This document shows, piece by piece, positions 16,833-42,794 of a stretch of 64,000 nt of DNA. Numbering within the stretch: position 1 is the first letter of the stretch; each line of letters opens with the position of its first letter. The stretch spans positions 2,489 to 66,488 of the forward strand of contig JACREN010000044.1 of assembly GCA_016218255.1 (NCBI GenBank). Direction: 5' to 3'. Position numbers and translations under genes: made by a program. Below the pieces are notes generated by a model that saw only the letters and a list, made by a program, of their open reading frames with translations, searched no databases and had not been told where the DNA came from. This DNA comes from Candidatus Gottesmanbacteria bacterium. GTDB taxonomy: Bacteria; Patescibacteriota; Microgenomatia; UBA10105; UBA927.

Positions 16833-17954
16833 TCACAATTTATGATATTTTCTAATGGCAGTATGTCCTAATATAATCTTTACCACCTTTTCCGATACAT
16901 TGACATCGCGGTAGTCAGCGGGAATAACCCGATGTTCCTGGAACTCACCTGTCGCCATTTTAATCGCATCATTTAACGCATCTTTATGAAATCCGGTTAC
17001 GATAATAGACCCTGCATCAAAAGCTTCGGGTCGTTCCGTGGATACCCGCACTTGCACAGCCGGAAAACCTGCGATTGCGGATTCCTCCTGTATCGTACCG
17101 CTATCTGAAATAACACAGAAGGCATTTTTTTCCAGTCTTGCGAATTCTAAAAACCCAAACGGTTTATGACAGTGAATAAGCGGATGCAACGAACCCAATG
17201 ACGCCAGTTTTTTCTGAGTTCTGGGATGCACAGATAGCAAAACAGGCTTCTTATAAGCATCTGCCAGACTACCCAATGAAGCAAATAGCTCACGGATTCT
17301 GTCCGGCTTTTCTATATTTTCCTCTCTGTGAACGCTGACAAGAAAATATCCCCCTGGTATAAGATTCAAATCAGTAAGCACAGTATTACCGGATATAGCA
17401 GAATTATAATAAGCAAGAATTTCCGCGTATGGACTTCCGGTGACAAATATAGTTTTTGGGTGAAGTCCTTCACGGATAAGATACCGCCTGGCATGTTCCG
17501 TGTAACAAAGATTAAAATCGCTGATATGATCCACAATTCTCCGATTTACTTCCTCCGGCACATCCCAATCGAACGAACGATTTCCTGCTTCCATATGGAA
17601 AATGGGAATATGCATCCGTTTAGCGATCACCGCCGACAAGCAACTATTGGTATCTCCCAATACGAGAAGTGCATCAGGCATTTCTTTTTTAAGGACTGCT
17701 TCCGATTGTTCAATTATTCGCGCGATCTGCCCCCCCAGGGAATCTGACTTCACATCCAAAAAGTAATCAGGTCTTCGAAGCTCTAATTCCTCAAAAAAAA
17801 TATCGCTCAATTCATAATCATAACTTTGCCTCGTATAGACCATGATGTGATGAAAATACTCATCCAGTTTCGGCAACACCCGTGATAAACGGATAATTTC
17901 CGGCCGAGTACCAACTATAGACATAATGGTCAATGACTTTTTCTGTTGTTTCAT
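16833..17954 (-). CDS. UDP-N-acetylglucosamine 2-epimerase family (WecB/FnlC/CapG-like)
   Basis: 373 aa with 'MSIVGTRPEIIRL' and 'HMEAGNRSFDWDVPEEVNRR', which are epimerase_2 signatures. Confidence 0.85.
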   Translation of the reverse strand: MKQQKKSLTIMSIVGTRPEIIRLSRVLPKLDEYFHHIMVYTRQSYDYELSDIFFEELELRRPDYFLDVKSDSLGGQIARIIEQSEAVLKKEMPDALLVLGDTNSCLSAVIAKRMHIPIFHMEAGNRSFDWDVPEEVNRRIVDHISDFNLCYTEHARRYLIREGLHPKTIFVTGSPYAEILAYYNSAISGNTVLTDLNLIPGGYFLVSVHREENIEKPDRIRELFASLGSLADAYKKPVLLSVHPRTQKKLASLGSLHPLIHCHKPFGFLEFARLEKNAFCVISDSGTIQEESAIAGFPAVQVRVSTERPEAFDAGSIIVTGFHKDALNDAIKMATGEFQEHRVIPADYRDVNVSEKVVKIILGHTAIRKYHKL

Positions 17955-19006
17955 TTTTTTTGAATTTGTATTAGCTCATCTTGTATTTCAGAGAGCCCGG
18001 ATAATATCCGTACAACCTCTTCAACCTTTGCACGGGGAGTATTTTCAGATGTATATGCCTCCTTCATGGATTCAAGCTTTCGTTCACCGTCCAAAAAATA
18101 ACGGTTGTACTCTAGCCCCTGACTTTCCGGTGGGATATCAAAATAGCTACCACGGTCTACTACCCGAGCAAGTTCTTCACATGTCAAAAGCGTTTCATGG
18201 TATTTCTCTCCTGCCCGAATACCAACTTCGCGATACCCTTTTGCGTGTGAAAAAATTCTGCACACAGCTTCTACTAGCACACCCACAGTACACGCACGCG
18301 ACTTCCGCACATACAGATGTCCATTTTCTCCATTTACAAGCGCATACAATACCAAATCAACCGCTTCCGGCAATGGCAGAAGAAATCGAGTCATCGAAGG
18401 GTTGGTCACAGGCAGGGTGTTATTTTTTTTAACCTGCTCAATAAAAAATGGAAGCACCGACCCCCGCGAATAAAGGACATTCCCGTAGCGCACACCGCAA
18501 AAAACAGTATGCTTGTTTCCACTCTCCGAGAGCTTCCGCGCAGCAGCGACCATAACCTTTTCCATAATCGCCTTAGTCATCCCCATAGCATTTATGGGGT
18601 ACGCCGCCTTATCCGTACTCAAAATCACAACCCTGGATACGTCGGCAGCAATTGCGCTATCCAGCACATTCTGGGTGCCTAATACGTTTGTTTTAACGGC
18701 CTCAATTGGAAAAAATTCACATGACGGCACCTGCTTGAGCGCAGCCGCATGGAATACAAAATCCACTCCGTCCATGGCTTCTGAAACACTAGCTCCATCC
18801 CGCACATCGCCAATAATAAATCTTAAAAGCCGCGAATTATAATAGTTTCGCATGTCAAATTGCTTCTTTTCATCACGGCTGAAAATGACTATCCGTGCCG
18901 GCTCAAGTGACAATAGTTTTTCAATAACCGTATTGCCAAATGATCCCGTTCCCCCAGTTATTAAAATCGTTTTATTTTTTATATGCTCTCTGACGCTTTT
19001 TTTCAT
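17951..19006 (-). CDS. UDP-GlcNAc 4,6-dehydratase/epimerase of the CapD/FnlA/PseB family
   Basis: 351 aa with 'KTILITGGTGSFGNTVIEKLL' and 'IVIFSRDEKKQ', which are Polysacc_synt_2 short-form hallmarks. Confidence 0.8.
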   Translation of the reverse strand: MKKSVREHIKNKTILITGGTGSFGNTVIEKLLSLEPARIVIFSRDEKKQFDMRNYYNSRLLRFIIGDVRDGASVSEAMDGVDFVFHAAALKQVPSCEFFPIEAVKTNVLGTQNVLDSAIAADVSRVVILSTDKAAYPINAMGMTKAIMEKVMVAAARKLSESGNKHTVFCGVRYGNVLYSRGSVLPFFIEQVKKNNTLPVTNPSMTRFLLPLPEAVDLVLYALVNGENGHLYVRKSRACTVGVLVEAVCRIFSHAKGYREVGIRAGEKYHETLLTCEELARVVDRGSYFDIPPESQGLEYNRYFLDGERKLESMKEAYTSENTPRAKVEEVVRILSGLSEIQDELIQIQKK

Positions 19007-20175
19007 AATGATAAAGCACGGATGACATTAATTGTGTATAGAGTGTTGTAGTCAAAACGCCGAACGTACGATATCGCACATTTTCTATATGAGGTATGCA
19101 ATTTTTCGTCCGTCAGGAACCTTACTATAGCACGAACCAATGCTTCTTTTCTATAAGGAACGACGATCCCGCACCTATGAATTTGTATATCGCGGGCGCT
19201 GGCAATTGCATCTGTTACCACTACCGGTAACCCGCATACCATATAGTCCTTTATTTTCCCTGGATCTGCATTTTTTACTTTTTCATCCAGAATATACGTA
19301 TTAAATGGTGCAACACCTACCGCGCCTCGGCATAGTATTCGTTCAAGCTGTTTCCGGTCAGTTACCCAACCGTAAAAGCGGACATACTTTGTGAGATGCA
19401 ATATGGCAGTCAACTTCTGAAGTGCCTCCATCTGCTCGCCCCCCCCGACAATAACTAACGACGCATCTGGTACCTTCTTACGTATATCAGCAAATGCGCG
19501 AATAAGCATATCTACCCCCATATGCATCACAAGGTGACCGGAAAAAACAATGAGACGAGTGTTGATTTGTGACCGCGGCAGGCGCTTCACCTGATCAAAC
19601 CAAATGCCAATCGGAACCGTATGCTGACTACCCATCTCCCCCTTAGAGCGGTGAAATTTCCTCCTCGCAGCAACCATGGCTTCTGACACATTCCATGTTT
19701 CATCAGAATGTCGCACACAAAATAAATCAATTGCATGATACAGTCGATTCATGAATGGATTTGCGAATCGAGTCGGGAAATAATCAATCGTATAATATAC
19801 AACCCGCCGTACTATGCCCAATCGTTTCAAAAATAGCCCCAGAAGTGCGTTCATATTATCAACGCCGATAAACAAATCAAATCTCTTTCCCGCTTGAAGG
19901 ATACGGCCCAGAGCGAATAACGCTTCAAACCCTGAACTTAATACGACATTACGAAACCGCACTGGTGCACGAACACCAGAAACGATGTTATTACCGCGGC
20001 TGAGCTCTGCAAAGGATCGATCAAAATCATGAACATCTGCCATCGGCAATGGATGGCTTATATAAAGCAAATTCCGGCACCCATGAACGCGCAAAAAATC
20101 TCTCATCGCCTGTGAAGCAGAATACACTCTGGCATGGGTAGCCAAAATAATTGACGATTGTTTAATGATATTCAT
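19003..20175 (-). CDS. GT4 (GT-B fold) glycosyltransferase
   Basis: 390 aa. The C-terminal Glycos_transf_1-type region 'LVIVGGGEQMEALQKL...FYGWVTDRKQLERILCRGAVGVAPF' has the E-x7-E-like pattern. Confidence 0.7.
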   Translation of the reverse strand: MNIIKQSSIILATHARVYSASQAMRDFLRVHGCRNLLYISHPLPMADVHDFDRSFAELSRGNNIVSGVRAPVRFRNVVLSSGFEALFALGRILQAGKRFDLFIGVDNMNALLGLFLKRLGIVRRVVYYTIDYFPTRFANPFMNRLYHAIDLFCVRHSDETWNVSEAMVAARRKFHRSKGEMGSQHTVPIGIWFDQVKRLPRSQINTRLIVFSGHLVMHMGVDMLIRAFADIRKKVPDASLVIVGGGEQMEALQKLTAILHLTKYVRFYGWVTDRKQLERILCRGAVGVAPFNTYILDEKVKNADPGKIKDYMVCGLPVVVTDAIASARDIQIHRCGIVVPYRKEALVRAIVRFLTDEKLHTSYRKCAISYVRRFDYNTLYTINVIRALSL

Positions 20176-20987
20176 AGTCCCAATGTCCTACCCAATCCCT
20201 CATAAATCAATGTGGTCGGCTCCCACCCCAATATTTGACTCGCACGCGAAAAGGAACAAATTGGGAGTACTGATTCCTTATTCGGCGATGGCGCATACGA
20301 TACTGAAATTTCTTTTCCAACCAATTTACTCATTGTATGAATAAGCCCATTGATAGATACTCGTTCTCCTGAGCAAACATCGATTACTGGACAAATTTCC
20401 ACCCCTCTATACATAACCGACCGAAATATTGCTAAGGCAGCATCTTTCACATAGAGATAATCACGAATTTGCTTACCATCTCCATGAACCACGATCGGCT
20501 TTCCGGACTGGATTAGGTGAGCGAATGTCGAAATTGCTGAATTATAAAACGGACGGCCACCGGGGCCATAAAGATTCGAAAAACGCAATACTACTGCCCG
20601 CATTCCCCTTGATCTGCTTTCATATCCAATCACCTCTTCAGCGCATCGCTTGCTCCAACCGTAAAAACTATTCTTCCATGCTGCCTGCACGGATGAAGCA
20701 AATATTAGCGCTGCCTTCGGACAGTATAATCGCATCGCTTCCATAAGGCGGACGGTACCTAGCAGATTTACCTTCGCCAGCTTATAATTCGTATCACGGT
20801 TAGCTCCGGCGAGATGCACTACTGCAGACGCTCCTATCAATAATTCCGAAAGGGATTGAGGAATGAATAAGTCTTGCGTTTCTTTTTTTAGAAATGACGT
20901 GGTAACTGATTCTTGCTGAAAGAGTTGCATCACATGAGCACCAAGGAATCCTGTTGCCCCGGTGATAGCAATTTTTTTCGTTTTCAT
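20172..20987 (-). CDS. Short NAD(P)-dependent SDR, sugar-nucleotide reductase/epimerase-like
   Basis: 271 aa with 'KIAITGATGFLGAHV' and 'YGWSK' (YxxxK). Its position after a CapD-like dehydratase suggests a 4-reductase role. Confidence 0.65.
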   Translation of the reverse strand: MKTKKIAITGATGFLGAHVMQLFQQESVTTSFLKKETQDLFIPQSLSELLIGASAVVHLAGANRDTNYKLAKVNLLGTVRLMEAMRLYCPKAALIFASSVQAAWKNSFYGWSKRCAEEVIGYESRSRGMRAVVLRFSNLYGPGGRPFYNSAISTFAHLIQSGKPIVVHGDGKQIRDYLYVKDAALAIFRSVMYRGVEICPVIDVCSGERVSINGLIHTMSKLVGKEISVSYAPSPNKESVLPICSFSRASQILGWEPTTLIYEGLGRTLGL

Positions 20988-27290: not shown

Positions 27291-27484
27291 TGAAGAAAAT
27301 TCTTGTTTTGATATCAGATATCCAAATGACGATTATTATGACGATATTTTACCTCGTCATACTTGCTCCCTTTTCACTATTTGTAAAAAGTAAAATTAAG
27401 CCTTTTAAGACAAAAAAAAAGAACAGCAATTGGGAGCGCATACATATTACTTCAAATAATAAAGATCTGATGAAACAATACTAA
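27290..27484 (+). CDS. Tiny single-TM membrane protein (64 aa)
   Basis: Its ATG shares one nucleotide with the preceding stop (TGATG). The product is 'MKKILVLISDIQMTIIMTIFYLVILAPFSLFVKSKIKPFKTKKKNSNWERIHITSNNKDLMKQY'. It ends 7 nt before the carbamoyltransferase start. Confidence 0.4.
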   Translation: MKKILVLISDIQMTIIMTIFYLVILAPFSLFVKSKIKPFKTKKKNSNWERIHITSNNKDLMKQY

Positions 27485-27491
27485 TGCACCC

Positions 27492-29273
27492 ATGAATATC
27501 CTTGGCATTTCCTGTGATTATCATGATAGTGCTGCAGTTCTCGTTCGCGATGGAATTCTGGTCTCCGCAGCCCAGGAAGAACGGTTCACCCGATTAAAAA
27601 ATGATTCCTCCATCCCGCGCCATGCCGTTGATTTCTGCCTTTCACAGGGTAACATCGGGCTGAAAGATATTGATCGGGTTGCTTTTTATGAAAAGCCGTT
27701 CCGAAAATTTCACAGAATTCTGCTCTCATCGTTAGCCACATATCCGGCTGGTCTGCCGTTTTTTGTCGCAGCTATGCGTTCGTTTCTTTTGGAGAAATTG
27801 TGGATCAAAAATAAAATCATTGAAGAACTACATATACCGGAAGACCGTGTCTCATTCGTCCCCCATCACATTTCCCATGGGGCATCAACATTTTTTGCAT
27901 CACCATACTGCGACGCAACCATCGTAACGATTGACGGTGTCGGAGAATGGGCGACCTCAACCATTGGAAAAGGAAAAGATAACAATATCACGGTAATGGC
28001 TGAACAGCAGTTTCCCCATTCTCTTGGGCTTCTTTACAGCACAATCACCGCGTTTTTGGGATTCGAGGTTAATGAGGGGGAATACAAAGTCATGGGCATG
28101 GCACCGTTTGGAAAACCAATATATGCTGACAAAATTTGGAAACTTCTCAACCTGTTTCCAGATAGCAGCTTTCGGTTAAACCTAGAATATTTTTCCTTTC
28201 AGATATCAGAAAGCAGTCCATATAGTTCAAAGCTTATTTCTCTGTTGGGCAAGCCCAGGGATCCCGGCAGTCACTTTTTCACCAAACGCTCCGGTTTTCC
28301 TTCATATTTTGGCAAAAAACCAGCCGACTACGCGAAGCGTTGTGAAGAAAATCAACACTTTGCCGACATTGCCGCATCGCTGCAATACGTAGCGGAGCAT
28401 ATCATATTTTCTGTTATTCGCCACGCCTACACGATAGCGCCATCAAAAAATCTGTGTCTCGCCGGGGGAGTTTTCTTAAACAGTGTCGCAAACGGCAAAC
28501 TTCAAAAAAATACTCCTTTCCAACATATCTATATCCAGCCGGCGGCAGGTGACGCAGGCGGCGCATTAGGCGCTGCGCTTTATGTAAACAGAACCGTATA
28601 TCAATCCAAGCCTTTTATCATGACTCACGCGTATTGGGGCAAAGAATTCTCGGAAACAGAAATATTGCACGCAGCAAAATCATATAATCTCTCCTTTCGA
28701 AAAATACGCAATACGCGCAAACTCAACACAGTCATCATCAATGCGATAATGAATGAAAAAGTCGTCGGCTGGTTTAACGGGCGAAGCGAATGGGGTCCGA
28801 GGGCTTTGGGCAATCGAAGTATTCTGGCAGATCCCAGAGATCCCGCCATAAAGGATATTGTCAATACAAAAATAAAGTTCCGTGAGCCATTCCGTCCGTT
28901 CGCTGCTTCTGTTCTCGCCGGACATGAACATGAAATATTCGATATACCTGCTTCTCCGGGTTTACCCATCAATTTTATGCTCTGCGTGTATCCGGTCAAT
29001 AAGAAATGGCGTAAAAAAATTCCTGCAGTCACGCACGTCAACGGAACCAGCAGACCCCAGGTCGTCAACAAAAAAGATAATAAACGCTACTGGGAGCTTA
29101 TCAACGATTTTTATAAAAAAACCGGTGTGCCATTGCTATTGAATACATCGTTTAACATCAAAGGCGAACCGATCGTGAACACCCCGACTGATGCCATACA
29201 AACATTCCTCACAAGTGAACTCGATCTGTTAGTCATGGGAAATTTCATTATAACAAAACAATCAAATAGCTGA
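27492..29273 (+). CDS. O-carbamoyltransferase of the NodU/CmcH/TobZ family
   Basis: 593 aa. 'ILGISCDYHDSAAVLVRDGILVSAAQEERFTRLKNDSSIPRHAVDFCL' is the hallmark N-terminus of the family. A YrdC-like C-terminal region is present. Confidence 0.85.
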   Translation: MNILGISCDYHDSAAVLVRDGILVSAAQEERFTRLKNDSSIPRHAVDFCLSQGNIGLKDIDRVAFYEKPFRKFHRILLSSLATYPAGLPFFVAAMRSFLLEKLWIKNKIIEELHIPEDRVSFVPHHISHGASTFFASPYCDATIVTIDGVGEWATSTIGKGKDNNITVMAEQQFPHSLGLLYSTITAFLGFEVNEGEYKVMGMAPFGKPIYADKIWKLLNLFPDSSFRLNLEYFSFQISESSPYSSKLISLLGKPRDPGSHFFTKRSGFPSYFGKKPADYAKRCEENQHFADIAASLQYVAEHIIFSVIRHAYTIAPSKNLCLAGGVFLNSVANGKLQKNTPFQHIYIQPAAGDAGGALGAALYVNRTVYQSKPFIMTHAYWGKEFSETEILHAAKSYNLSFRKIRNTRKLNTVIINAIMNEKVVGWFNGRSEWGPRALGNRSILADPRDPAIKDIVNTKIKFREPFRPFAASVLAGHEHEIFDIPASPGLPINFMLCVYPVNKKWRKKIPAVTHVNGTSRPQVVNKKDNKRYWELINDFYKKTGVPLLLNTSFNIKGEPIVNTPTDAIQTFLTSELDLLVMGNFIITKQSNS

Positions 29274-29648
29274 GGCAAATGTATCAGGTTTGGCCTGATC
29301 AAGGGGCTCATTCACAAACGCGAGAAGAAACATTTCTCCCTGGCCGATATTTTCCAGCTTATGCGCGACACCAGCAGGCACAGCGACCATGGTCGGTTTA
29401 TCTCCACTGACCACAACCTCCTCACGCTCATGCGTTTTCAAATCTTCAAATGAAATTTTTGCTTTCCCTTTAATAATGAGAAACCATTCTTGTTTTTTAG
29501 TATGAAAGTGCTGACCGCGTACAACCCCTTTCTTCGAATATGACACAAAGAAATGCTTCATCGCGCGGGATAAAAACGGATATTCGTTCTGTACGAGCCA
29601 GCCGCGTTCATCACGCCGAACTTTCAGAGGATACGTATCTATTTTCAT
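29262..29648 (-). CDS. Cupin sugar-nucleotide 3,4-ketoisomerase-like protein (FdtA/WxcM-C-like)
   Basis: 128 aa with 'ERGWLVQNE' and 'VRGQHFHTKKQEWFLIIKGKAKI', containing the His pair typical of FdtA-type isomerases. Confidence 0.65.
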   Translation of the reverse strand: MKIDTYPLKVRRDERGWLVQNEYPFLSRAMKHFFVSYSKKGVVRGQHFHTKKQEWFLIIKGKAKISFEDLKTHEREEVVVSGDKPTMVAVPAGVAHKLENIGQGEMFLLAFVNEPLDQAKPDTFASAI

Positions 29649-30640
29649 ATCCAGCCCGTTTTTTTCAAAAGTCTAATAATAGCATTCCGATCCATAAAAT
29701 TACCCGCTAAGTCCGTACGATATTCATTATATTTTTTCCGCAATCCGGAAACTCTTTCTCCATACGGGTAAATAACGAAATAATCATTCCTTTCGACTGC
29801 GCGATGCATTTCCTCTTCTGAAACTAAGGCTTCATACAACTGTTCCCCTTCTCGGGAACCAATCCTTTTCATAGGATATTCTTCTCTACCAGTCAAAGCT
29901 TTGCTCATGACAGCGGCTATATCTGTGATTCGAGCAACCGGCATCTTTTTTACAAAAATTTCTCTTCCTTTTCCTTCTGTGGTCGCTGTAAATACTAAAT
30001 CCATAGCGTCTTCTAAGCTGATCAGGAATCGGGTCATATCAGATTCTGTAATGGTCAAAGGTTCTTTTTTATCAATCTGATCTTTAAAAAGCGGCACCAC
30101 GCTACCCCGGCTTCCCACAACATTGCCGAAACGGACACACGTAAATAATGTTTTATCGGTTTTATGAGCAAACAGCAGAATTCTTTCCTGAATGGCTTTT
30201 GTCATTCCCATGACATTTACTGAACGGACTGCTTTATCAGTGCTAATTGCTATGACCTTTTGCACGCCGTTTTGGATAGCGGCTTCCCGCAAGTTAAAGG
30301 CGCCATGAACATTTGTATATACCGCTTCCATAGGATTTTCTTCACAAATCGGCACATGCTTCATCGCAGCGGCATGATAGATAATATCCACTCCGCGGCA
30401 CGCAGCCAGCAATGTAGAAAAATTTCGTACATCACCGATGGAAAATGTAAGGCGATCGGCAAACGCTGACAGATCGCGACGCAATATGTGCTGTTTCCAT
30501 TCATCCCGGGAAAACACAATGATCTTCCGTGGGGAGAATTTCAAAAGATGCCGTACTAAATATTCTCCAAAGCTCCCCGTCCCTCCCGTGACGAGCACTG
30601 TTTTATCATTAAAAAACTCTGCCATCGCTAACGTGTTCAT
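29645..30640 (-). CDS. UDP-GlcNAc 4,6-dehydratase (PseB/PglF/CapD short-form family)
   Basis: 331 aa with 'KTVLVTGGTGSFGEYLVRHLL' and 'IIVFSRDEWKQ'. It is a paralog of 17951..19006. Confidence 0.8.
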   Translation of the reverse strand: MNTLAMAEFFNDKTVLVTGGTGSFGEYLVRHLLKFSPRKIIVFSRDEWKQHILRRDLSAFADRLTFSIGDVRNFSTLLAACRGVDIIYHAAAMKHVPICEENPMEAVYTNVHGAFNLREAAIQNGVQKVIAISTDKAVRSVNVMGMTKAIQERILLFAHKTDKTLFTCVRFGNVVGSRGSVVPLFKDQIDKKEPLTITESDMTRFLISLEDAMDLVFTATTEGKGREIFVKKMPVARITDIAAVMSKALTGREEYPMKRIGSREGEQLYEALVSEEEMHRAVERNDYFVIYPYGERVSGLRKKYNEYRTDLAGNFMDRNAIIRLLKKTGWI

Positions 30641-31725
30641 AGTGCTTTCTCAATAAATTCCGCAATAAAGTGAATCTGTTTTTTTGTAATCTTCGGATGA
30701 ACCGGCAGCGAAAGCGCTTCCCGGCTTAATTGCTCTGCAATCGGAAAGTTGCCGCGAAACCCGCGTACAAGCAGTTCCTTTTGCTGATGAATGGGTACGG
30801 GATAATAGATCCCATATCCTATGCCTGCACCGTCAAATGCGTGAATGAGCGTCTGTCTATTTTTTTCTTTTTGCTCTCTTACGCGTATCGTATATTGATG
30901 ATACACGTGCTGCACGCATCCCGCAACGACGGGCGTAACAAGCTGAGGCATATCACTCAATAGCTCATTATAGTACGCAGCATGCTCTCTTCGAATCTTA
31001 TTAAACCGATCAAGTTTGGCAAGTTGTACCAGACCCAATGCGGCCTGCATTTCCGTCATTCGCATATTATAACCTAAAAAATCATGATAATATCGAACTC
31101 GACCACCGTGGCTTCTAGCCATCTTCGCATAATCATTAATATCCTTATCGTCCGTCACAATCATGCCTCCCTCACCGGTTGTCATATTTTTGGTCGCGTA
31201 AAATGAAAAACAACCAATATCCCCAATAGATCCTGCCTTTTTGCTTTTGTATATGGCTCCATGGGCTTGGCAAGCATCTTCTATGATCTTCAGATCGTGA
31301 CGTCTGGCGACGTCCCGGATTATGTCCATATCACAAACATTTCCAAATAAATGAACCGGCAAAATTGCCTTTGTTCGTTTGGTAATTTTTTCTTCTATCT
31401 TTCCTGCGTCAATATGAAAGTCTTTACCAATATCGACAAACACCGGCGTTGCACCCACATACAAAATCGCGTTGGTCGAAGCGATAAAACTATAGGGGGT
31501 CGTTATCACCTCATCACCCGGACCGATGCCAAGAGCAAGAAGAGCAATATGAAGAGCTACCGTGCCATTTGCCACCGCAACCGCATACCCCGAACCCATA
31601 TAGGAAGCAAATTGCTTTTCAAAAGCCGCCACCGTTTCCCCTTGTGCCAATTGTCCGGAGCGCAGGACCTTGACCACCGCCTGCTCTTCCTCATGGGTAA
31701 AAGAAACATGAGTAATAGGAATCAT
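30637..31725 (-). CDS. DegT/DnrJ/EryC1-family sugar aminotransferase (PglE/PseC-like)
   Basis: 362 aa with 'AVANGTVALHIALLALG' and the catalytic Lys in 'FSFYATKNMTTGEGG'. Confidence 0.85.
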   Translation of the reverse strand: MIPITHVSFTHEEEQAVVKVLRSGQLAQGETVAAFEKQFASYMGSGYAVAVANGTVALHIALLALGIGPGDEVITTPYSFIASTNAILYVGATPVFVDIGKDFHIDAGKIEEKITKRTKAILPVHLFGNVCDMDIIRDVARRHDLKIIEDACQAHGAIYKSKKAGSIGDIGCFSFYATKNMTTGEGGMIVTDDKDINDYAKMARSHGGRVRYYHDFLGYNMRMTEMQAALGLVQLAKLDRFNKIRREHAAYYNELLSDMPQLVTPVVAGCVQHVYHQYTIRVREQKEKNRQTLIHAFDGAGIGYGIYYPVPIHQQKELLVRGFRGNFPIAEQLSREALSLPVHPKITKKQIHFIAEFIEKAL

Positions 31726-32282
31726 ATAGATATTTCAGCTTTACACACAGGGCACATCTGCCCTACCCCCTTTTTCACGAGCTTTGCTCCACAAAGACAG
31801 ACATATCCATGCGCGCGGGCAGGATTTCCATATACCAGGCTATGTCGAGCAACATCTCTTGTCACTACTGACCCAGCGCCTATCATCGCCCATTCTCCGA
31901 TAGTTACCCCTGGAACGATAACGCTACCCGCTCCCACAGATGCACCTCGCTTCACCACCGTCTTGGTTACTACCCAATCCTTGACTCCCTTTGGTTTCTC
32001 TTTTGGTGTCACGGCACGGGGCACTTTATCATTCGCAAAACATACGTGAGGACCCACAAACACTCCGTCTTCTATAGTAACACCCACATAAATCGACACG
32101 TAATTACCTATCTTACAATTATTGCCAACTATAACATCATGATCAATATACACGCCTTTTGCGATAATGCAACTGTTGCCCAATCTCGCATGCTCGCGTA
32201 TTTGTGCGTGATGCCAAATTTTAGTTCTTTCTCCAATATGGGCATTTTTGCTTACCTCCGCAGTTGGGTGAATATATATCAT
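31722..32282 (-). CDS. Left-handed beta-helix (hexapeptide-repeat) N-acetyltransferase (PglD/WbpD-like) with a C-terminal Cys4 tail
   Basis: 186 aa with imperfect hexapeptide repeats, for example 'IGERTKI', 'IREHARLGNSCII' and 'VIVGNNCKIGNYVSI'. The C-terminus reads 'VCLCGAKLVKKGVGQMCPVCKAEISI'. Confidence 0.8.
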   Translation of the reverse strand: MIYIHPTAEVSKNAHIGERTKIWHHAQIREHARLGNSCIIAKGVYIDHDVIVGNNCKIGNYVSIYVGVTIEDGVFVGPHVCFANDKVPRAVTPKEKPKGVKDWVVTKTVVKRGASVGAGSVIVPGVTIGEWAMIGAGSVVTRDVARHSLVYGNPARAHGYVCLCGAKLVKKGVGQMCPVCKAEISI

Positions 32283-33355
32283 AACGTATTATAAAAAAAA
32301 TCGACAACAACGTCACTTGGCCGACTCGTAACTTGCTTGTGACGGCGTAGTCTCCTGTACGAATTCAAAAACCAAACAACTCTCCTCATTTCCAACTTCG
32401 ACAAGTAAGCAGTCTCCCCAATGCCAATATCCTGTTCAATAACTTCTCTTAAAATAAGCATTGGAGTATTGAGAACAAACGTTTCTGTCTGCAACCCACC
32501 GCTGTCAGAAGCTACAAACTGACTGTGTCTGACTGCATGCATAAAATCAACATAATCAAAAAGATAACTGGTAACGAGCGGAAACTTACGTTTTAGCTCC
32601 AATATAGTCTGCCAAACTCCCTGCTTTTTAAGCTCAAAAACAGTATTGGTATGGATCGGCCATATGACGATAAACCCTCGGCGCAAAATTTCCTCCAATA
32701 TTCGGATAATGCGATGCAACCTTTCTTTGTTGAATAAATTTTCTTTTCTATGAAACGTAATGAGTACATATTTTTTTCCAAAAAATTGCTTTATCTTATT
32801 TGACGGTGGTCTTTGCAAAGCCAGTCTCGCCGAATCCAACGCCGTATTTCCGTTGGTAATGAAAATACTCTGCTTTCTCTTGATTGTGTCTGCGTCTCTC
32901 TGATATGGACAAAAACTAATATCGCTATACCTGGATACGACCGTTCGGGTAATCTCCTCAGGAAATGGTTCAAAAAAATTCCAACTGCGAATTCCGGACT
33001 CCAGATGCACGATGCGCGCACCAAACCATTTTGCAATGAGAAAACCCAAAATAGTTGACTCTGCGTCTCCATGGATAAGAACGTAATCATGTTTGGTTAT
33101 AGGAAGCTTACGCGCATTCCACAGCACATGAGGCGCCCAACACAACAGTTCCCAGATATTTGCAAGGTCCCTTTTTTTCATCGTCAGGTAGATATCCGGC
33201 TTGCGAATTCCCAATCTTTTTCTGGTATTTTCTATGATATGATAATGTTGACATATATGTATAAACTGATAGGGTACCCGACGCTTATCAAGCCCCTGCA
33301 TAACAGGAAACGTCTTCATGAATTGTCCCTTTGTGCCGATGAGTATATATATCAT
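32279..33355 (-). CDS. UDP-N-acetylglucosamine 2-epimerase family protein, second copy; a hydrolysing NeuC/LegG-like role is possible
   Basis: 358 aa with 'IVHLESGIRSWNFFEPFPEEITR' and 'FVASDSGGLQTE', which are epimerase_2 motifs. Confidence 0.65.
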   Translation of the reverse strand: MIYILIGTKGQFMKTFPVMQGLDKRRVPYQFIHICQHYHIIENTRKRLGIRKPDIYLTMKKRDLANIWELLCWAPHVLWNARKLPITKHDYVLIHGDAESTILGFLIAKWFGARIVHLESGIRSWNFFEPFPEEITRTVVSRYSDISFCPYQRDADTIKRKQSIFITNGNTALDSARLALQRPPSNKIKQFFGKKYVLITFHRKENLFNKERLHRIIRILEEILRRGFIVIWPIHTNTVFELKKQGVWQTILELKRKFPLVTSYLFDYVDFMHAVRHSQFVASDSGGLQTETFVLNTPMLILREVIEQDIGIGETAYLSKLEMRRVVWFLNSYRRLRRHKQVTSRPSDVVVDFFYNTL

Positions 33356-35352
33356 AATTTCTCTATTCCCTTAGGTCCATAAACACGAACTTGAATATAG
33401 GAAAGTATACAAGAAAGGAAATCGTTTGGAACGATATCGATCATTCGTGCCATTGTAGCCGGAAAAAAATAATACCATGTATTTGGCTTAAAATAAAATT
33501 TTTGATATTGCCCATAGATGCTTTTGAAAAACCGCATATCCTCCTCCATTCTTATTAAGTTCTCCCCATCAGCAATATATTGTACCCCGCCGTCATCCGC
33601 TTTGCTACAGTCCAACGTGTTGTGATCGACCTCTATTCGCGTTATTATTCTTAATCTGTCGAGACGAATTTTTATAAATCCTTCGTTTCGACCGCCTGTG
33701 ATGTCCACATTTGGAATAATCATCTCATTTGAAAGTTCAGGTTTAAAATATGTCGCCTCATTTTTCCAAATTTTCAAAACGGGTATGCCTTCAACGCTGA
33801 TTATATCGACTGGATTCATCATTTGATTTAAATAGAGAAAGTTATATCGCGGCGGCGGAAAATCTACCGACACCATTTCCATCATGTATTCCCCCTCATG
33901 TCTTAATGCAGAAAAATATGCACCAAATCGTATATCCTTCCGGATATACTGCCCTGGAATATTCGAAAGCAGCCCAACAGGCAAACCGACTCGGGCGTTC
34001 TGTTCTGCATGTTTATTAAGCCACCTGATGCCCTGCAGATATACATTTCCCATGGATTCCGCGGCTCCGGGAATCTTGTGTGCAACCGCACCGGATACAC
34101 CGCCAATCAGACTATTAAGAAATAAATTCTCATTCGGATGCATGCGCATCATCGTCAAAAGCGTTGGGACAAACAATAATACAATGACGACCGAAGAAAA
34201 AAATCTGCGCCCTGTTATTTTCACTAGCACTTCTCTACATATATGTGCGCCAAACCCTGTCAACAATACAAGAGCAGGTAAGTATTCCAAAATCTGCCTG
34301 ACGCCGCTATAAATGGATGCGCCCGGCCACATCACCCGCACGATCGGCACGCATAACCAAAATACCACCAGCCAGACAAACCGGCTCTTCTCCTTAAAAC
34401 GACCAGTCAATACTCCAACAAATCCAACAACCGCAAAAAGCAAAGAAACCAGCGGCGTTGATATAACGACAAAAAAGGGTGGATACATATTCCACCCGTA
34501 AAAAAGAAACGACGGCTGATTGGCATTGCCCGTACCTATTCCCTTGTAATACATGATTGTATCCCGCAGTCTTCCGATCGGATCAGACCAAAGATATGGC
34601 CAGGACGAGTAAAAAATCAAAAAAACGATAGCAGGAAAAAGCAAAAAAGACAAAATCATTCTCCGTGTAAAAAAGCGCGTTGGCCGGCAAATAATAAGAT
34701 AGGGCAGCAGCATAAAAGGAACAAAAACAATATTAAATTTTGTTGATAAAGCTAATCCGCATAAAAACGCAGACCACAGCAGCAGAGACGCTTTATTTTT
34801 CGTTATCCCGAGGTAAAAAAAATATACAGTTCCGGCAAAAAATGCGGTTTCTACCGGATCTTTGATATTAAAGCGTGATTCTCCCAAAAAAAGTGGGTAA
34901 AGGGCAAGGGCTAGGGCCGCGATACCTCCAGCAAACGCCCCAAGCGTGTCCCGCCCCATCACAAATACAAGAAACACCAATAAACCGGCAACAAGTACTT
35001 CAAACGCGTGATATGATTCCAAATCTCCCATAATTCCCAACTTCTCATAAAGTATCCGGTTGCTTAATGCAGCAATAATTCCGTTTAGAGCTGGATGCCC
35101 ACCGTCATTTTTCAGAAAATATTGCCCATTGTATTGCTGAATCTTCCATGCGCTTACTCTCGGTCCAATCAAATTCGATGGACGGTAAGAATACTGGCCA
35201 GTCGTCAATAAGTGTAAATATGCCTGACCACGAATAAAATGAATCGGCTCATCAATATTGATGCCGTAATCAGAAAGCGTCGCAACACCCACAACAAAAA
35301 AAACCATCGCTATAATTATTCCCCCAAAATACCGGATTATAAAATTTTTCAT
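33352..35352 (-). CDS. GT-C-type glycosyltransferase, PMT/ArnT-like, paralog of 23336..25387
   Basis: Motifs 'GINIDEPIHFIRGQAY' and 'DGGHPALNGIIAAL', with the same length and architecture as the paralog. The ORF track extends to 35397. The ATG at 35352 gives an ATGA overlap with the GT4 gene ending at 35349. Confidence 0.55.
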   Translation of the reverse strand: MKNFIIRYFGGIIIAMVFFVVGVATLSDYGINIDEPIHFIRGQAYLHLLTTGQYSYRPSNLIGPRVSAWKIQQYNGQYFLKNDGGHPALNGIIAALSNRILYEKLGIMGDLESYHAFEVLVAGLLVFLVFVMGRDTLGAFAGGIAALALALYPLFLGESRFNIKDPVETAFFAGTVYFFYLGITKNKASLLLWSAFLCGLALSTKFNIVFVPFMLLPYLIICRPTRFFTRRMILSFLLFPAIVFLIFYSSWPYLWSDPIGRLRDTIMYYKGIGTGNANQPSFLFYGWNMYPPFFVVISTPLVSLLFAVVGFVGVLTGRFKEKSRFVWLVVFWLCVPIVRVMWPGASIYSGVRQILEYLPALVLLTGFGAHICREVLVKITGRRFFSSVVIVLLFVPTLLTMMRMHPNENLFLNSLIGGVSGAVAHKIPGAAESMGNVYLQGIRWLNKHAEQNARVGLPVGLLSNIPGQYIRKDIRFGAYFSALRHEGEYMMEMVSVDFPPPRYNFLYLNQMMNPVDIISVEGIPVLKIWKNEATYFKPELSNEMIIPNVDITGGRNEGFIKIRLDRLRIITRIEVDHNTLDCSKADDGGVQYIADGENLIRMEEDMRFFKSIYGQYQKFYFKPNTWYYFFPATMARMIDIVPNDFLSCILSYIQVRVYGPKGIEKL

Positions 35353-36413
35353 ACAGATAATAAAACCCCTAACGCCTTCCGGGCCGCCAGATTCCAACTT
35401 CTTCTTTTTGCCTGAACAAGTGCGCCCATCTGCAACACTCTGTATAACTTCTTATCCTGTAATACACGAATCGCTTCACGAGCAAGTGAATCTGGATTCG
35501 GCGCAGTTAGTATGCCGCTCGTTCCATCCATTACGACATCCCGTACTCCCGATACATTATATGCAATCGTTGGGGTACGCACGAGTCCGGCCTCACTCAC
35601 CACCAACCCCCAACCCTCATGAATAGAAGGAAATAAAAGCAAATGAGCCTTTGCCAAAAAGGAAAATTTCTTTGTTTCAGATACCTTACCAAAAAAACGC
35701 ACCGAGTTTTTTCTCCAATGTGATTTTATCGGTCCTTCACCAATCACCCAAAAGTTGGCTTCTGGAAAATGATTTTTGACAAGATCAAAAGCCAATAGAG
35801 CGTCCTCCGTACCTTTTTGTTTATTGATTCTCCCCAAATACACCAACGTTGGATTATTTTCTTTTTTTGTTTTTGGTAGATGTCGAGGCATATCTACACC
35901 CAATGGAATAACTGTAATTCCTCGATCATTGAACCCTTCAGCGATAAGATCGTCCTTTGTTGATTTTGAAATTGTTATAGTCGGAACATTTCGGTACAAA
36001 TAGAAATATATTCTTTCAATCCAACGTCCCAATGCAGCCAAGGGCTTAGGAAACAAAACCGGAAAAAGTTTTTTGGCTACTTCACACGCCAAAAGTACTG
36101 TCTTATTACCTGCATAGAATACTGCAAAAAATGGATACCAATGCACTTCATCTATTACTACATCTGTAGCTTTTTTGAATCGAAAAAAATAATACCAAAC
36201 TGCCAATGCATGCACATTCCACCATCGGCCTCGCCGAAATATTCTCACCCCGTCAATATATTCATCGGGCAAACTTCCCCGATAACCGGCACAAAAGACA
36301 GTAACACTATGTCCCCAGATCACCCAGCGCTTTGCGAGTTCATGCGTGAGTCTTTCAGCACCCCCACCAGCCGGATTTTTGATATCACGCCAATTGAGAA
36401 TGAGGATTCGCAT
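35349..36413 (-). CDS. GT4 (GT-B fold) glycosyltransferase
   Basis: 354 aa with 'MRILILNWRDIKNPAGGGAERLTHELAKRW' and C-terminal 'LFPSIHEGWGLVVSEAGLVRTPTIAYNVSG'. Confidence 0.75.
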   Translation of the reverse strand: MRILILNWRDIKNPAGGGAERLTHELAKRWVIWGHSVTVFCAGYRGSLPDEYIDGVRIFRRGRWWNVHALAVWYYFFRFKKATDVVIDEVHWYPFFAVFYAGNKTVLLACEVAKKLFPVLFPKPLAALGRWIERIYFYLYRNVPTITISKSTKDDLIAEGFNDRGITVIPLGVDMPRHLPKTKKENNPTLVYLGRINKQKGTEDALLAFDLVKNHFPEANFWVIGEGPIKSHWRKNSVRFFGKVSETKKFSFLAKAHLLLFPSIHEGWGLVVSEAGLVRTPTIAYNVSGVRDVVMDGTSGILTAPNPDSLAREAIRVLQDKKLYRVLQMGALVQAKRRSWNLAARKALGVLLSV

Positions 36414-36419
36414 GGGACT

Positions 36420-37280
36420 TTAGCCAATATTAATGCGGAAATTTAGCTCCGGATCATATCGCCATTGCTGACTGTTTAAATTGTCGTAGTACCGTAAAAT
36501 TTTCAGCCGATAAAATACAGCCGCGGTATCCCACAGCATATGATAAATAATATTCCATAAGTTAGCGGATGTAATGCTAGAAGCTCCCGAAAAATCCAGT
36601 TCAACCGGCGCTTCAAAAATCCGACGATACCCTAAATGATGCGCCACTGCCAAAATTTCGATATCAAAGGCAAACTCTTTCACCAACAGCCTCGGCAACA
36701 CATCCTCTAGAACCTTCCGCCGAAAAAGTTTCATTCCCACTTGTGAATCACGGATGTTAAGACCAAACATAACACGTACTACCATTTGATACCCCCACGA
36801 CAACAGCGTTCGGGAAAAAGGATAATGCACTTTTGATACCGGATGCCTCTTGCTTCCGATAATAATATCCGCGTTGTACCAGCGGTAATGTTCCAAAAAC
36901 ATGGATACCCCTTCTGCCCGAATATCGCTTCCGGCATCCAAAAATGCAATCACATCACCCTTGGCTCTGGCCATACCGTAACGCACCGCATATCCCTTTC
37001 CGTGATTATGCTCATATCCTACGACGACGATATGTTTTCTGACAAGCTTACGTGCCCGCGCATATGTCTGATCCTCTTTTCCATCCACAACCACAATGAG
37101 TTCATAGGGAATTTTTATATGCACAAGAGATGCATCAATTTGCCGGATATCTTGCTCTATGCTCTTTGACTGTTTATAAGCGGGAATGATAACGGAGAGC
37201 AATTTTGGATCGTGCTGCATAGGCGTAATATAGCAAAAGCACGCCCAAAAGAGAAGCTGTAACAGCCAATGATACACCAA
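36420..37280 (-). CDS. Family-2 glycosyltransferase
   Basis: 'LSVIIPAYKQSKSIEQDI', 'VVVDGKEDQT' and 'FLDAGSDI'. Its 5' end overlaps the upstream flippase gene by up to 107 nt, so the start is uncertain. Confidence 0.7.
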   Translation of the reverse strand: MVYHWLLQLLFWACFCYITPMQHDPKLLSVIIPAYKQSKSIEQDIRQIDASLVHIKIPYELIVVVDGKEDQTYARARKLVRKHIVVVGYEHNHGKGYAVRYGMARAKGDVIAFLDAGSDIRAEGVSMFLEHYRWYNADIIIGSKRHPVSKVHYPFSRTLLSWGYQMVVRVMFGLNIRDSQVGMKLFRRKVLEDVLPRLLVKEFAFDIEILAVAHHLGYRRIFEAPVELDFSGASSITSANLWNIIYHMLWDTAAVFYRLKILRYYDNLNSQQWRYDPELNFRINIG

Positions 37281-38430
37281 TCACATTTGCAAGTGTACTA
37301 TGAAAAAACCATATAACGCTCGCCTGAGCAACCGCAGCAACGGGCATAAAAAATATCGGAGTTGCTTTGTGCGCACCGAAATAAAACATGGTCACTACAT
37401 TGACGAGGGCGCACACAGACAAAAATAAACCAAACATCGGCAAATAAGACGCAGCACTTACGTATTTTGCTCCGATAAGAGCCCGGATTACAATTTCTGG
37501 AAACATCCAATATACGAAACTGATCCCGCCAGCCAATAGTGCGGTAAGGCCGAGACTATAAAGAAACATCTTATGATATCCGTCTCCCTTTGCGTAGGCC
37601 GCAGACACCAAAGGCAGCATGGTATTGGCAATCGGCGCCGATCCGAAATAAATAATTTTTCCCAGCACGGATAGCGCGGCATACGTACCTGCTTCACCAG
37701 GTAAAAAATGTCTCACTAGAACAACATCAACATTAAAAAAGGCGATCATGCTCATGGTCATAATAAAGCTAATCACCGACTCGCTCCCTATTCTGCGCCA
37801 ACCTATATCCGCGGCAACCACGGAACGAGACATATTCTTTTCGATGACAATTAACGTGTATAAGTATGTAAAAACTCCGGCAAGCACAAATGCTCCAAAA
37901 GCGCCGGTTGACCCCCAACCAACCAATACTGCCAATATCCCCAATGCCAATTTTCCATAAGACTCAATTACATTCGCGACTACCAATTCAAAAAATTTAG
38001 AAATTCCCTGAATAATACTCCTATTCAAAATCTGCAGAAGTCCAAAAAACAATGCGATATCCAAAAATACAAAACTGCCGAATGAAGAAATATGCAAAAA
38101 GGATAAAACAGGTCCCGAGAAAATCAAAAAGATTATACCCCCAATGACCAGTATTTTCCAAAAATACGCCGTCAGCCGGTAATAGAGAAAATTTATTTTT
38201 CCGTGCTCTCCGAATCCCGCAAATTGAGCCACAAATTTGACCATCATCATATTCAGCATCACCAACGGAACTGTTATGATATTGGACAACGAAATCAGAC
38301 TCTGGAGAATGCCGTATTCAGAGGGCGGCAACATGCGGCCAACCAGCAAGTGGTATAGATATGCTCCTGACTGAGCAGCGAAAGCGCCGCCAACCATTAA
38401 CACATTCGCATGAATAAAATCCTTCTTCAT
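37174..38430 (-). CDS. Wzx/MOP-superfamily oligosaccharide (lipid-linked glycan) flippase-like membrane protein
   Basis: 418 aa with about 12 TM helices. The N-terminus 'VGGAFAAQSGAYLYHLLVGRMLPPSEYGILQSLISLSNII' is typical of polysaccharide-biosynthesis flippases. Confidence 0.6.
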   Translation of the reverse strand: MKKDFIHANVLMVGGAFAAQSGAYLYHLLVGRMLPPSEYGILQSLISLSNIITVPLVMLNMMMVKFVAQFAGFGEHGKINFLYYRLTAYFWKILVIGGIIFLIFSGPVLSFLHISSFGSFVFLDIALFFGLLQILNRSIIQGISKFFELVVANVIESYGKLALGILAVLVGWGSTGAFGAFVLAGVFTYLYTLIVIEKNMSRSVVAADIGWRRIGSESVISFIMTMSMIAFFNVDVVLVRHFLPGEAGTYAALSVLGKIIYFGSAPIANTMLPLVSAAYAKGDGYHKMFLYSLGLTALLAGGISFVYWMFPEIVIRALIGAKYVSAASYLPMFGLFLSVCALVNVVTMFYFGAHKATPIFFMPVAAVAQASVIWFFHSTLANVIGVSLAVTASLLGVLLLYYAYAARSKIALRYHSRL

Positions 38431-42790: not shown

Positions 42791-42794
42791 ACTT

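Follow-up and report, generated by a model that had tools for sequence, protein, structure and literature searches.

The question raised by the five linked genes at positions 29262-33355 of the DNA analysed here, a 64-kb stretch of contig JACREN010000044.1 from a Candidatus Gottesmanbacteria bacterium (the window), is which activated sugar they make and whether that sugar is used directly or leads on to a nonulosonic acid. The cassette encodes a 2-epimerase, a left-handed beta-helix (LbH) N-acetyltransferase, a DegT-family aminotransferase, a 4,6-dehydratase and a cupin, and a preliminary description had compared it with the bacillosamine (PglF/E/D) and legionaminic acid (LegB/C/H) pathways. 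From comparisons of sequence and predicted structure we consider it quite likely that the five genes form a self-contained route from uridine diphosphate (UDP)-N-acetylglucosamine (UDP-GlcNAc) to an L-series, UDP-retained diacetamido-trideoxyhexose, with no nonulosonate involved. The contig measures 67.8 kb, and the cupin and epimerase proteins match NCBI entries from the same organism at 100% identity. The best reading of its regiochemistry, which we hold tentatively, places the second nitrogen at C3 and gives a 2,3-diacetamido sugar.

The five open reading frames (ORFs) all lie on the minus strand. In the order of transcription they encode a divergent non-hydrolysing (WecB-type) UDP-HexNAc 2-epimerase (32279..33355, 358 aa), a WlbB/QdtC-type (class II) LbH N-acetyltransferase (31722..32282, 186 aa), a pyridoxal phosphate-dependent DegT-family sugar aminotransferase (30637..31725, 362 aa), a UDP-GlcNAc 4,6-dehydratase of the 5-inverting CapE/FnlA/PseB type, which is a short-chain dehydrogenase/reductase (SDR) protein (29645..30640, 331 aa), and a free-standing CapF-type metal cupin (29262..29648, 128 aa). 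The coordinates are exactly those of the preliminary description, whose gene list is borne out by the domain matches and whose chain of 4-nt overlaps is seen as an ATGA stop/start overlap at all four internal junctions; it had also rightly read the logic of a dehydratase, an aminotransferase and an acetyltransferase with an extra 2-epimerase. A fifth ATGA overlap joins the epimerase gene to an upstream gene for a PMT_2 (ArnT/Agl23-like GT-C) membrane glycosyltransferase (33352..35397, minus strand, 681 aa; PF13231, E = 5e-13), which may use the cassette product in lipid-linked form. At the other side the cassette ends the operon, since the cupin stop codon overlaps the stop codon of a convergent carbamoyltransferase gene. 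A scan for consensus promoters and terminators between 27 and 46 kb gave nothing above shuffled expectation.

The same gene set and order were found in independent metagenome contigs of the candidate phyla radiation (CPR), at 52-82% protein identity. Because the same genes recur in the same order in independent contigs, the cassette is a conserved unit and not a chance adjacency. Locus L004 carries epimerase, acetyltransferase, aminotransferase, dehydratase and cupin (the cupin 55% identical) with GT4 and PMT_2 flanks, and all five genes with the same flanks occur on a 408-kb contig (L009; epimerase 58% identical). L002/L003 have the string epimerase-acetyltransferase-aminotransferase-cupin (cupin 73%, epimerase 82% identical) without a dehydratase, which implies that the dehydration step in L002 is supplied in trans. 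The cupin accompanies the aminotransferase in every cassette (L002, L004, L009), and the PMT_2 gene flanks the cassette in these three loci and in L094, a fragment with PMT_2-epimerase-acetyltransferase. The existing annotations of syntenic proteins from JGI are generic and uninformative on function. In a further locus, L095, the order is epimerase, an unassigned gene, a FemAB-like acyltransferase, aminotransferase and dehydratase: a 248-aa protein and a FemAB-family (aminoacyl/GNAT-like) transferase (1152-2847) stand between the epimerase and the aminotransferase, where the LbH acetyltransferase would be. This variant suggests that the amine is acylated there with something other than acetate.

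The dehydratase bears on the configuration of the sugar. It matches Polysacc_synt_2 in Pfam (E = 8e-100), and its NCBIfam scores are 315 bits for PseB (cut-off 408), 300 for FnlA (equivalog cut-off 730), 55 for LegB and 44 for the dTDP (deoxythymidine diphosphate)-glucose dehydratase model. Among PDB entries it matches the FnlA-type enzyme 4j2o with 277 bits, FlaA1/PseB with 233, CapE with 230 and PglF (5bju) with 189, so that the PglF/LegB type proposed in the preliminary description gives way to the inverting type on both sets of scores. When aligned to 4j2o and CapE, the protein shows D-K...MxxxK where PseB has YxxxK; CapE is known to carry this motif in place of YxxxK (PMC3699295). A FnlA-like paralogue in the window (17951..19006) is 41% identical to it. 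Since the close relatives of the cassette dehydratase are all 5-inverting, the sugar should belong to the L series, with an L-arabino-hex-4-ulose intermediate.

The epimerase bears on the fate of the nucleotide. It is an Epimerase_2 protein (E = 3e-48) and, as noted earlier, a second homologue in the window, where another Epimerase_2 gene lies at 16833-17954; the two proteins are 23% identical. The NCBIfam wecB model gives it 158 bits (equivalog cut-off 210) versus 27 for NeuC_NnaA (cut-off 236). The suggestion that it could be NeuC/LegG-like is not upheld by these scores, and the protein groups with WecB, which the preliminary description itself had set against its proposal. Its best PDB match is 5enz (125 bits), with WbpI-type enzymes at 81 and CapG at 54. 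Of its 24 PDB matches, the majority bear the plain name "UDP-GlcNAc 2-epimerase" and none is called hydrolysing; the few with an explicit name are non-hydrolysing (9cm8), WbpI-type and CapG. The catalytic Asp/Glu/Glu/His motifs of non-hydrolysing enzymes are present in the alignment to 5enz/3beo, and HGD, HxE, PFPEE, HRxEN and DxGGxQxE motifs are conserved in 23 aligned sequences of the subfamily (38-82% identical to the window protein), every source-named member of which comes from CPR bacteria. Being WecB-like, the epimerase is expected to retain UDP.

The search for the later enzymes of nonulosonate synthesis agreed with the statement in the preliminary description that neither a synthase nor a cytidine monophosphate (CMP)-transferase is in view. 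No NeuB (PF03102) or CMP-transferase was found by Pfam scans of nearly all plausibly coding window ORFs of 100 aa or more (22465-23415, ArnC/AglJ-like, was covered by NCBIfam only), and PseG, PseI or PseF-like domains were absent from the same scanned ORFs. Neither NeuB nor NeuA occurs in about 1.2 kb past the left end of the window, and NeuB, NeuA, PseG and PseI are all missing from the 20-kb syntenic locus L009. The last 0.77 kb at the right end hold an ORF that runs off the window, with a translation that is GT-C-like by eye only, without a domain scan. Direct use of the product as an activated sugar, as suggested before, is probable. The manno epimer that had been considered as product does not fit an L-series sugar, for which the expectation inverts: the C2 centre taken over from GlcNAc already corresponds to manno/talo in this series, WbvD and FnlC give the gluco/galacto-type epimer, and 2-epimerisation here would likewise give a gluco/galacto form.

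In the Holden-laboratory classification of LbH N-acetyltransferases, class II enzymes act on C3 amines, and it is to enzymes of this kind that the cassette acetyltransferase is most similar. The protein (Hexapep LbH, E = 1e-28) lacks the N-terminal domain of PglD-type enzymes and matches the NeuD/PglB/VioB model in the LbH core only (89-167 of 202). Searched against the PDB as a single sequence, it scores 125 bits with the N-domain of FdtD, 120 with the H. pullorum enzyme, 116 with WlbB and 69 with QdtC; a profile of the cassette enzymes gives 161 for WlbB, 144 for FdtD, 132 for H. pullorum and 102 for QdtC. The match to WlbB (3mqg) is nearly full length (positions 1-179 of 186 against 3-177 of 192), and those to PerB and VioB are partial (about 45-56 bits). 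With no PglD N-terminal domain and with C3-amine enzymes as its best matches, it is not the PglD/LegH-type acetyltransferase of the preliminary description. The pathways to UDP-ManNAc3NAcA, dTDP-Qui3NAc and Fuc3NAc include WlbB, QdtC and FdtD, respectively (bioRxiv 10.1101/2020.10.10.334391), from which it follows that these enzymes acetylate C3 amines. The class I LbH enzymes PglD, PerB, VioB and Pcryo_0637, which have the N-terminal domain, all act on C4 amines (PMC9271549). The C-terminal tail of the cassette enzyme, CxCG...CxxC (residues 162-180), may be a small zinc-ribbon addition; its four cysteines are invariant in 5/5 cassette-type homologues, and the tail of WlbB is of similar length without cysteines.

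The aminotransferase matches DegT (Pfam, E = 5e-131), and its best NCBIfam model is PseC with 334 bits (cut-off 423.5). Against the PDB, the profile of cassette aminotransferases gave 7b0d 414 bits, QdtB 331, perosamine synthase 321, DesV 292, WlaRG 275, WbpE 270, Pcryo_0638 268, ArnB 256, PseC 232 and PglE 168, PglE being the lowest of the listed matches (141-168 bits). The 3-aminotransferases QdtB, DesV, WlaRG and WbpE score above the UDP-4-keto-HexNAc enzymes Pcryo_0638, PseC and PglE; regiochemistry, C3 or C4, is not readable from such scores.

The cupin had been called isomerase-like. A cupin gene is indeed present, but its product is a homologue of the CapF C-terminal domain and not a typical FdtA isomerase. 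It matches PF14667 over the full model (97 bits) and FdtA with 32 bits (cut-off 23), aligns only to the C-terminal part of the NCBIfam WbcJ/WbjC model (positions 248-367 of 372) and, in the PDB, aligns to residues 239-355 of Cap5F (E = 1e-18). Its AlphaFold model (predicted local distance difference test score 95.6) has CapF as top fold match, with a template modelling (TM) score of 0.84; oxalate decarboxylases, RmlC-type epimerases and FdtA (2pae, rank 44, TM 0.59) follow far behind. Residues H47, H49, E54 and H96 are invariant, align with the His/His/Glu/His of the Cap5F cupin motif and presumably match the Zn ligands of CapF. Differences were seen at other positions when, among 89 aligned cupin domains, six cassette cupins were compared with 80 CapF-type cupins. 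G31 is replaced by K/R and Q32 by H in 6/6 cassette cupins, at sites invariant in 80/80 CapF-type cupins; N46, kept in 79/80 of the latter, is Q in 5/6, and E20, at another site invariant in the CapF-type cupins, is Q in 4/6. Such changes at CapF-invariant sites suggest an altered function of the cupin.

Cupins of this kind are few. Among 1.84 billion representatives, an exhaustive search with HMMER returned 385 relatives at E <= 1e-10, and only 2 of them reached E <= 1e-30. The former Gln position is occupied by His in about seven of the top clusters (50% identity), with K/R-H in five, S-H in one and G-H in one, and the clade is small and diverged. When species-representative genomes were scanned with the cupin alignment, 80 loci were obtained, most of which have FnlA, a fused CapF (~370 aa) and FnlC; in several CPR lineages CapF is split, the order being FnlA-SDR(245)-cupin(125)-FnlC, and Nitrospinota have SDR-cupin pairs. 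The cupin is paired with an aminotransferase or acetyltransferase in only 3/80 loci. One of these, from Patescibacteria (L013), has an acetyltransferase-dehydratase-cupin string within a Wbp-like cluster that also contains GFO_IDH_MocA oxidoreductases, a UDP-sugar dehydrogenase, an Asn-synthase-like amidotransferase and a single aminotransferase. The other two are aminotransferase-cupin pairs in Micrarchaeota (DPANN archaea; L029, 3402-4920, and L066, 7496-10387, the latter with a sugar C-methyltransferase and a GMD-type dehydratase nearby), in which a CapF-like cupin is independently linked with transamination.

The pathway that we favour would begin, as judged by family membership, with 4,6-dehydration and C5 inversion by the CapE/FnlA/PseB-type enzyme, yielding UDP-2-acetamido-2,6-dideoxy-beta-L-arabino-hex-4-ulose. 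In the second and least certain step, the CapF-type cupin would form a C3/C4 enediolate and, as a 3,4-ketoisomerase, shift the carbonyl from C4 to C3. The DegT aminotransferase would then place an amine on C3, the WlbB-like LbH enzyme would acetylate it, and the WecB-type enzyme would invert C2 with UDP retained. The predicted product is UDP-2,3-diacetamido-2,3,6-trideoxy-L-hexose, probably of the L-manno/L-talo type before 2-epimerisation and of the L-gluco/L-galacto type after it. It would be used by the proteins encoded next to the cassette, namely the PMT_2 (GT-C) protein and, in the same minus-strand gene string, a GT4 (GT-B) glycosyltransferase (35349..36413; Glycos_transf_1/Glyco_transf_4), a GT2 glycosyltransferase (36420..37280; PF00535, E = 6e-20) and a probable Wzx-like flippase (37174..38430, 418 aa). 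The GT4 and GT2 genes are syntenic in L001, L002, L004 and L009. The Wzx-like protein has no Pfam match and is 52% identical to the syntenic protein of L009, which matches PF01943 Polysacc_synt.

Amination at C3 is favoured by several lines of evidence. The acetyltransferase is of the WlbB/QdtC class; dehydratase, cupin, DegT and class II LbH enzymes together follow the logic of the Qdt/Fdt pathways; and acetyltransferase, aminotransferase and epimerase correspond to the trio WlbB-WlbC-WlbD, with dehydratase and cupin in place of the C3 oxidase WlbA. In the aminotransferase comparison the C3 enzymes outscore those acting on UDP-4-keto-HexNAc. The cupin is kept in L002, where the dehydratase has been lost, and it is changed at sites that are invariant in CapF. 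In Woesebacteria, an epimerase of the same subfamily adjoins a formyltransferase and a WbpB-like GFO_IDH_MocA oxidoreductase, and the Wbp-like cluster of L013 has only one aminotransferase next to its acetyltransferase-dehydratase-cupin string. Finally, a keto shift through an enediol by a metal cupin has precedent, since cupin-type glucose-6-phosphate isomerases are among the weak matches of the cassette cupin (E = 7e-4). Somewhat more tentatively still, we propose that the CPR-restricted cupin clade may be a CapF-derived C3-epimerase converted to the first 3,4-ketoisomerase on a UDP-linked 2-acetamido sugar. Its products would be L-RhaNAc3NAc-type sugars and their C2 epimers, decorating the envelope of ultra-small bacteria via ArnT-like GT-C enzymes.

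Other observations weigh against placing the nitrogen at C3. To our knowledge a UDP-sugar 3,4-ketoisomerase has not been described, and a literature search for one found none. The nearest characterised relative of the cupin is by far the C3-epimerase domain of CapF, by both sequence and fold (E = 1e-18; TM 0.84), and FdtA-type ketoisomerases are distant on the same measures (32 bits; fold rank 44). PseC, the best NCBIfam model of the aminotransferase, is a C4 enzyme on the same kind of intermediate, and perosamine synthase, another C4 enzyme, scores about level with QdtB. The link between class II enzymes and C3 amines comes from a handful of D-sugar enzymes and would be extended here by analogy. 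The cupin may also be shared with a reductase encoded elsewhere in the window and still be an epimerase. This reductase belongs to a second sugar module (module 1), 8-12 kb from the cassette on the minus strand, which consists of the FnlA/CapE-like dehydratase paralogue (17951..19006; FnlA 388 bits, Polysacc_syn_2C), a canonical WecB/FnlC-type 2-epimerase (16833..17954; Epimerase_2 300 bits, wecB 233 with a cut-off of 210) and an SDR protein of 271 aa (20172..20987) like the N-terminal reductase half of CapF/WbjC (WbcJ 2-207 of 372, 91 bits). In the PDB the SDR matches the Cap5F N-domain with 58 bits, which is not its top match. No cupin lies beside it, L009 has the same layout, and a hidden Markov model search of all six frames of the window found the cassette cupin as the sole CapF-type cupin. 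CapF thus appears split and dispersed, with module 1 lacking a cupin and the only CapF-type cupin of the 64 kb in the amino-sugar cassette. The module 1 SDR could use this cupin in trans, and the module 1 dehydratase could supply the same 4-keto intermediate to the cassette.

The most serious alternative, which we regard as possible but rather doubtful, places the amine at C4 and reads the cassette as the L-FucNAc pathway in amino form. The cupin would be a CapF-like C3-epimerase giving an L-lyxo-hex-4-ulose, C4 amination would replace the reduction by CapF, the LbH enzyme would acetylate N4 and the 2-epimerase would take the role of CapG/FnlC. The product would be a UDP-2,4-diacetamido-2,4,6-trideoxy-L-hexose, e.g. 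L-talo converted to L-galacto, and the cupin would also serve the reductase of module 1. The cupin is CapF-type in sequence, presumed metal-ligand residues and fold, and the cupin domain of CapF is known to be a Zn-dependent C3 epimerase acting on the product of CapE, with the keto group staying in place until the SDR domain reduces C4 (PMC5393024, PMC3699295). The dehydratase product is the natural substrate of PseC and CapF, PseC is the top NCBIfam model of the aminotransferase, no UDP-sugar ketoisomerase is known, and the window has one cupin for a CapF-N-like SDR that elsewhere is fused or adjacent to a cupin of its own. Set against this, the acetyltransferase groups with WlbB, QdtC and FdtD, C3 amines being the substrates of every characterised enzyme in that group, and it is without the N-terminal domain of the characterised C4-amine LbH enzymes PglD, PerB, VioB and Pcryo_0637. 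Residues on which the 80 CapF-type cupins agree are changed in the cassette cupins, PseC and PglE are among the weaker PDB matches of the aminotransferase, and the epimerase resembles CapG weakly (54 bits).

It is improbable that the cupin serves only the split CapF of module 1, with the aminotransferase acting in a PseC-like manner to give UDP-2,4-diacetamido-2,4,6-trideoxy-beta-L-altrose, which would then be 2-epimerised. The best NCBIfam models of the dehydratase and aminotransferase are PseB and PseC, as this would require, and the module 1 SDR has no cupin beside it. Translational coupling nevertheless ties the cupin to the cassette, and the cupin accompanies the aminotransferase in L002, L004 and L009, with no module 1 gene in view in L004. 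It has its counterparts in the aminotransferase-cupin pairs of Micrarchaeota; the acetyltransferase, moreover, is not a PseH-type GNAT enzyme. A role of the cupin as the mere missing half of a split CapF is further weakened by its divergence at CapF-invariant sites and by an SDR that is only moderately CapF-like.

We give the same low weight to the original proposal of a D-series UDP-2,4-diacetamido-2,4,6-trideoxy-glucose, made by PglF/E/D or LegB/C/H enzymes and, after conversion to its manno epimer, put to direct use. In its favour, the enzyme classes come in a fitting order, the scanned ORFs contain neither NeuB nor NeuA, and the MxxxK of the dehydratase has a parallel in PglF, which likewise has no catalytic tyrosine. 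On the other side stand PglF at 189 bits versus 277 for FnlA and LegB at 55 versus 315 for PseB, PglE as the weakest listed aminotransferase match, an acetyltransferase without the PglD/NeuD N-terminal domain and a CapF-type cupin for which no role is left; the PglF/E/D and LegB/C/H assignment was rejected on the comparative scores. Least probable of all is that the cassette provides the early steps towards a nonulosonic acid (pseudaminic, legionaminic or acinetaminic-like) whose synthase and CMP-transferase are encoded elsewhere in the genome: the PseB/PseC-like scores and the coverage of about 65 kb of one contig leave room for it, but we rejected it, as NeuB, NeuA, PseG and PseI are absent from the scanned ORFs, the left flank and the L009 locus, the epimerase is WecB-like (158 versus 27 bits for NeuC) with the non-hydrolysing catalytic set kept, and the cassette lies amid glycosyltransferases and is translationally coupled to one.

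The window contains further genes for glycan synthesis. The carbamoyltransferase convergent to the cassette is NodU-like, overlaps the cupin gene by 12 nt and forms a pair with a GDSL-lipase-like neighbour (25354-29273); the pair is kept beside the cassette in L002 (11533-15459) and hints at O-carbamoylation or O-acylation of the glycan. A third sugar module at 222-3998 encodes a glucose-1-phosphate cytidylyltransferase, a 4,6-dehydratase of the cytidine diphosphate (CDP)/dTDP-glucose type, a GT2 glycosyltransferase and a LegC-like aminotransferase, with a GNAT acetyltransferase just past the left end of the window (L093, 7132-7794). An Arn-like unit at 10499-14486 comprises an ArnA-N-like formyltransferase, a GT2 protein, a LegC-like aminotransferase and a PMT_2 GT-C protein; together with the ArnC/AglJ-like polyprenyl-phosphate glycosyltransferase at 22465-23415 it suggests transfer of a formamido sugar through a lipid carrier. 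At least nine PMT_2, YfhO or PTPS_related GT-C-type membrane glycosyltransferases are interleaved with the sugar-nucleotide modules and with GT2 and GT4 genes over the 64 kb (13104-14486, 23336-25387, 33352-35397, 39123-40226, 49127-50722, 53313-54935, 54932-56554, 57813-59297 and 60753-63230, with an ORF from about 63240 running off the end). This ArnT/PMT-like array is unusually dense for a small-genome CPR bacterium. Small DUF5667 proteins (21865-22449, 47857-48372) adjoin GT2 genes, as they do in L004, L009 and L010. Long ORFs without a Pfam match (372-980 aa; 3999-10458, 41213-47860, 50719-52353, 56551-57813, 59290-60915) are mostly chained to glycosyltransferase genes by short overlaps. 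Nearly all genes are on the minus strand, and GC skew is negative in all 2-kb bins (-0.06 to -0.20). A 64-kb region given over almost wholly to sugar-modifying enzymes and ArnT/PMT-like GT-C proteins points to elaborate envelope glycosylation in uncultured CPR bacteria.

Among known pathways, that to UDP-L-FucNAc (CapE/FnlA/WbjB, CapF/FnlB/WbjC, CapG/FnlC/WbjD) shares with the cassette the start from UDP-GlcNAc, a CapE/FnlA-type MxxxK 4,6-dehydratase/5-epimerase, a CapF-type metal cupin on the 4-keto intermediate and a final non-hydrolysing 2-epimerase that keeps UDP. Unlike CapF, the cassette cupin is free-standing and diverged at CapF-invariant positions, with no CapF SDR fused or adjacent to it (the only CapF-N-like SDR is 8 kb off); transamination and N-acetylation replace the NADPH-dependent reductase step of CapF, and the epimerase is only distantly CapG-like. 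The UDP-ManNAc3NAcA pathway (WbpA/B/E/D/I; WlbA-D) has in common with the cassette an aminotransferase, a WlbB-type LbH enzyme (the best PDB match), a non-hydrolysing 2-epimerase on a UDP-2-acetamido sugar and adjacent acetyltransferase and aminotransferase genes, as in wlbB and wlbC. Here, however, a 4,6-dehydratase and a cupin stand in place of the 6-dehydrogenase and C3 oxidase, no UDPG_MGDP_dh (WbpA-type) or GFO_IDH_MocA (WbpB/WlbA-type) domain was found in the cassette or the scanned window ORFs, and the product would be a 6-deoxy L-series sugar and not a uronic acid. The dTDP-Qui3NAc and dTDP-Fuc3NAc pathways (RmlB, QdtA/FdtA, QdtB/FdtB, QdtC/FdtC; FdtD fusion) agree in four enzyme classes and in chemical order, with QdtB and the FdtD acetyltransferase domain among the top matches of the cassette enzymes. 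They differ in that the cassette would use UDP and a 2-acetamido substrate, has a Polysacc_synt_2 dehydratase and not RmlB, has a CapF-type cupin with presumed metal-ligand residues and not an FdtA-type His-His enzyme, and adds a 2-epimerase.

The early steps of the pseudaminic acid pathway (PseB, PseC, PseH) resemble the cassette in a PseB-sized inverting dehydratase and in PseC as the best NCBIfam model of the aminotransferase, but the PseB and PseC scores lie below the equivalog cut-offs, Met stands for the catalytic Tyr as in CapE, the acetyltransferase is LbH and not GNAT, a cupin and a WecB-type epimerase are present, and PseG, PseI and PseF are missing from the scanned window ORFs. With the bacillosamine and legionaminic acid pathways (PglF/E/D; LegB/C/H/G/I/F) the cassette shares the reaction order of dehydratase, aminotransferase, LbH acetyltransferase and Epimerase_2 enzyme; it differs in its inverting-type dehydratase, other LbH class, non-hydrolysing epimerase and extra cupin, and no synthase or CMP-transferase was found. 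By these comparisons it appears to lack the features that define the bacillosamine, legionaminic and pseudaminic pathways. In E. coli O109/O119 (WeiS/P/Q/O) and A. baumannii (RhnA-C), a route to L-RhaNAc3NAc or L-RhaNAc3NFo has been predicted (PMC7685785, PMC9676051). It is the only proposed route to 2,3-diamino-2,3,6-trideoxy-L-hexoses, and is itself only predicted. Like the cassette, it could give such a sugar from UDP-GlcNAc via a dehydratase/epimerase and an N-acyltransferase; going by its description, it is set apart by two DegT-like proteins and by having neither a cupin nor a 2-epimerase. If the cassette cupin is the ketoisomerase that we infer, the CapF cupin family would gain a new activity, and 2,3-diamino-L-hexoses, for which biosynthesis in E. 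coli and Acinetobacter has only been predicted, would have an independent route of synthesis. Rare bacterial deoxy-amino sugars arise by shuffling few enzyme families, and the finding is incremental rather than categorical. The CapE/CapF route supplies the counterpart of the front half of the cassette, and the Wbp/Wlb and Qdt/Fdt routes that of the back half; all the enzyme families are known, and their combination is without a characterised counterpart.

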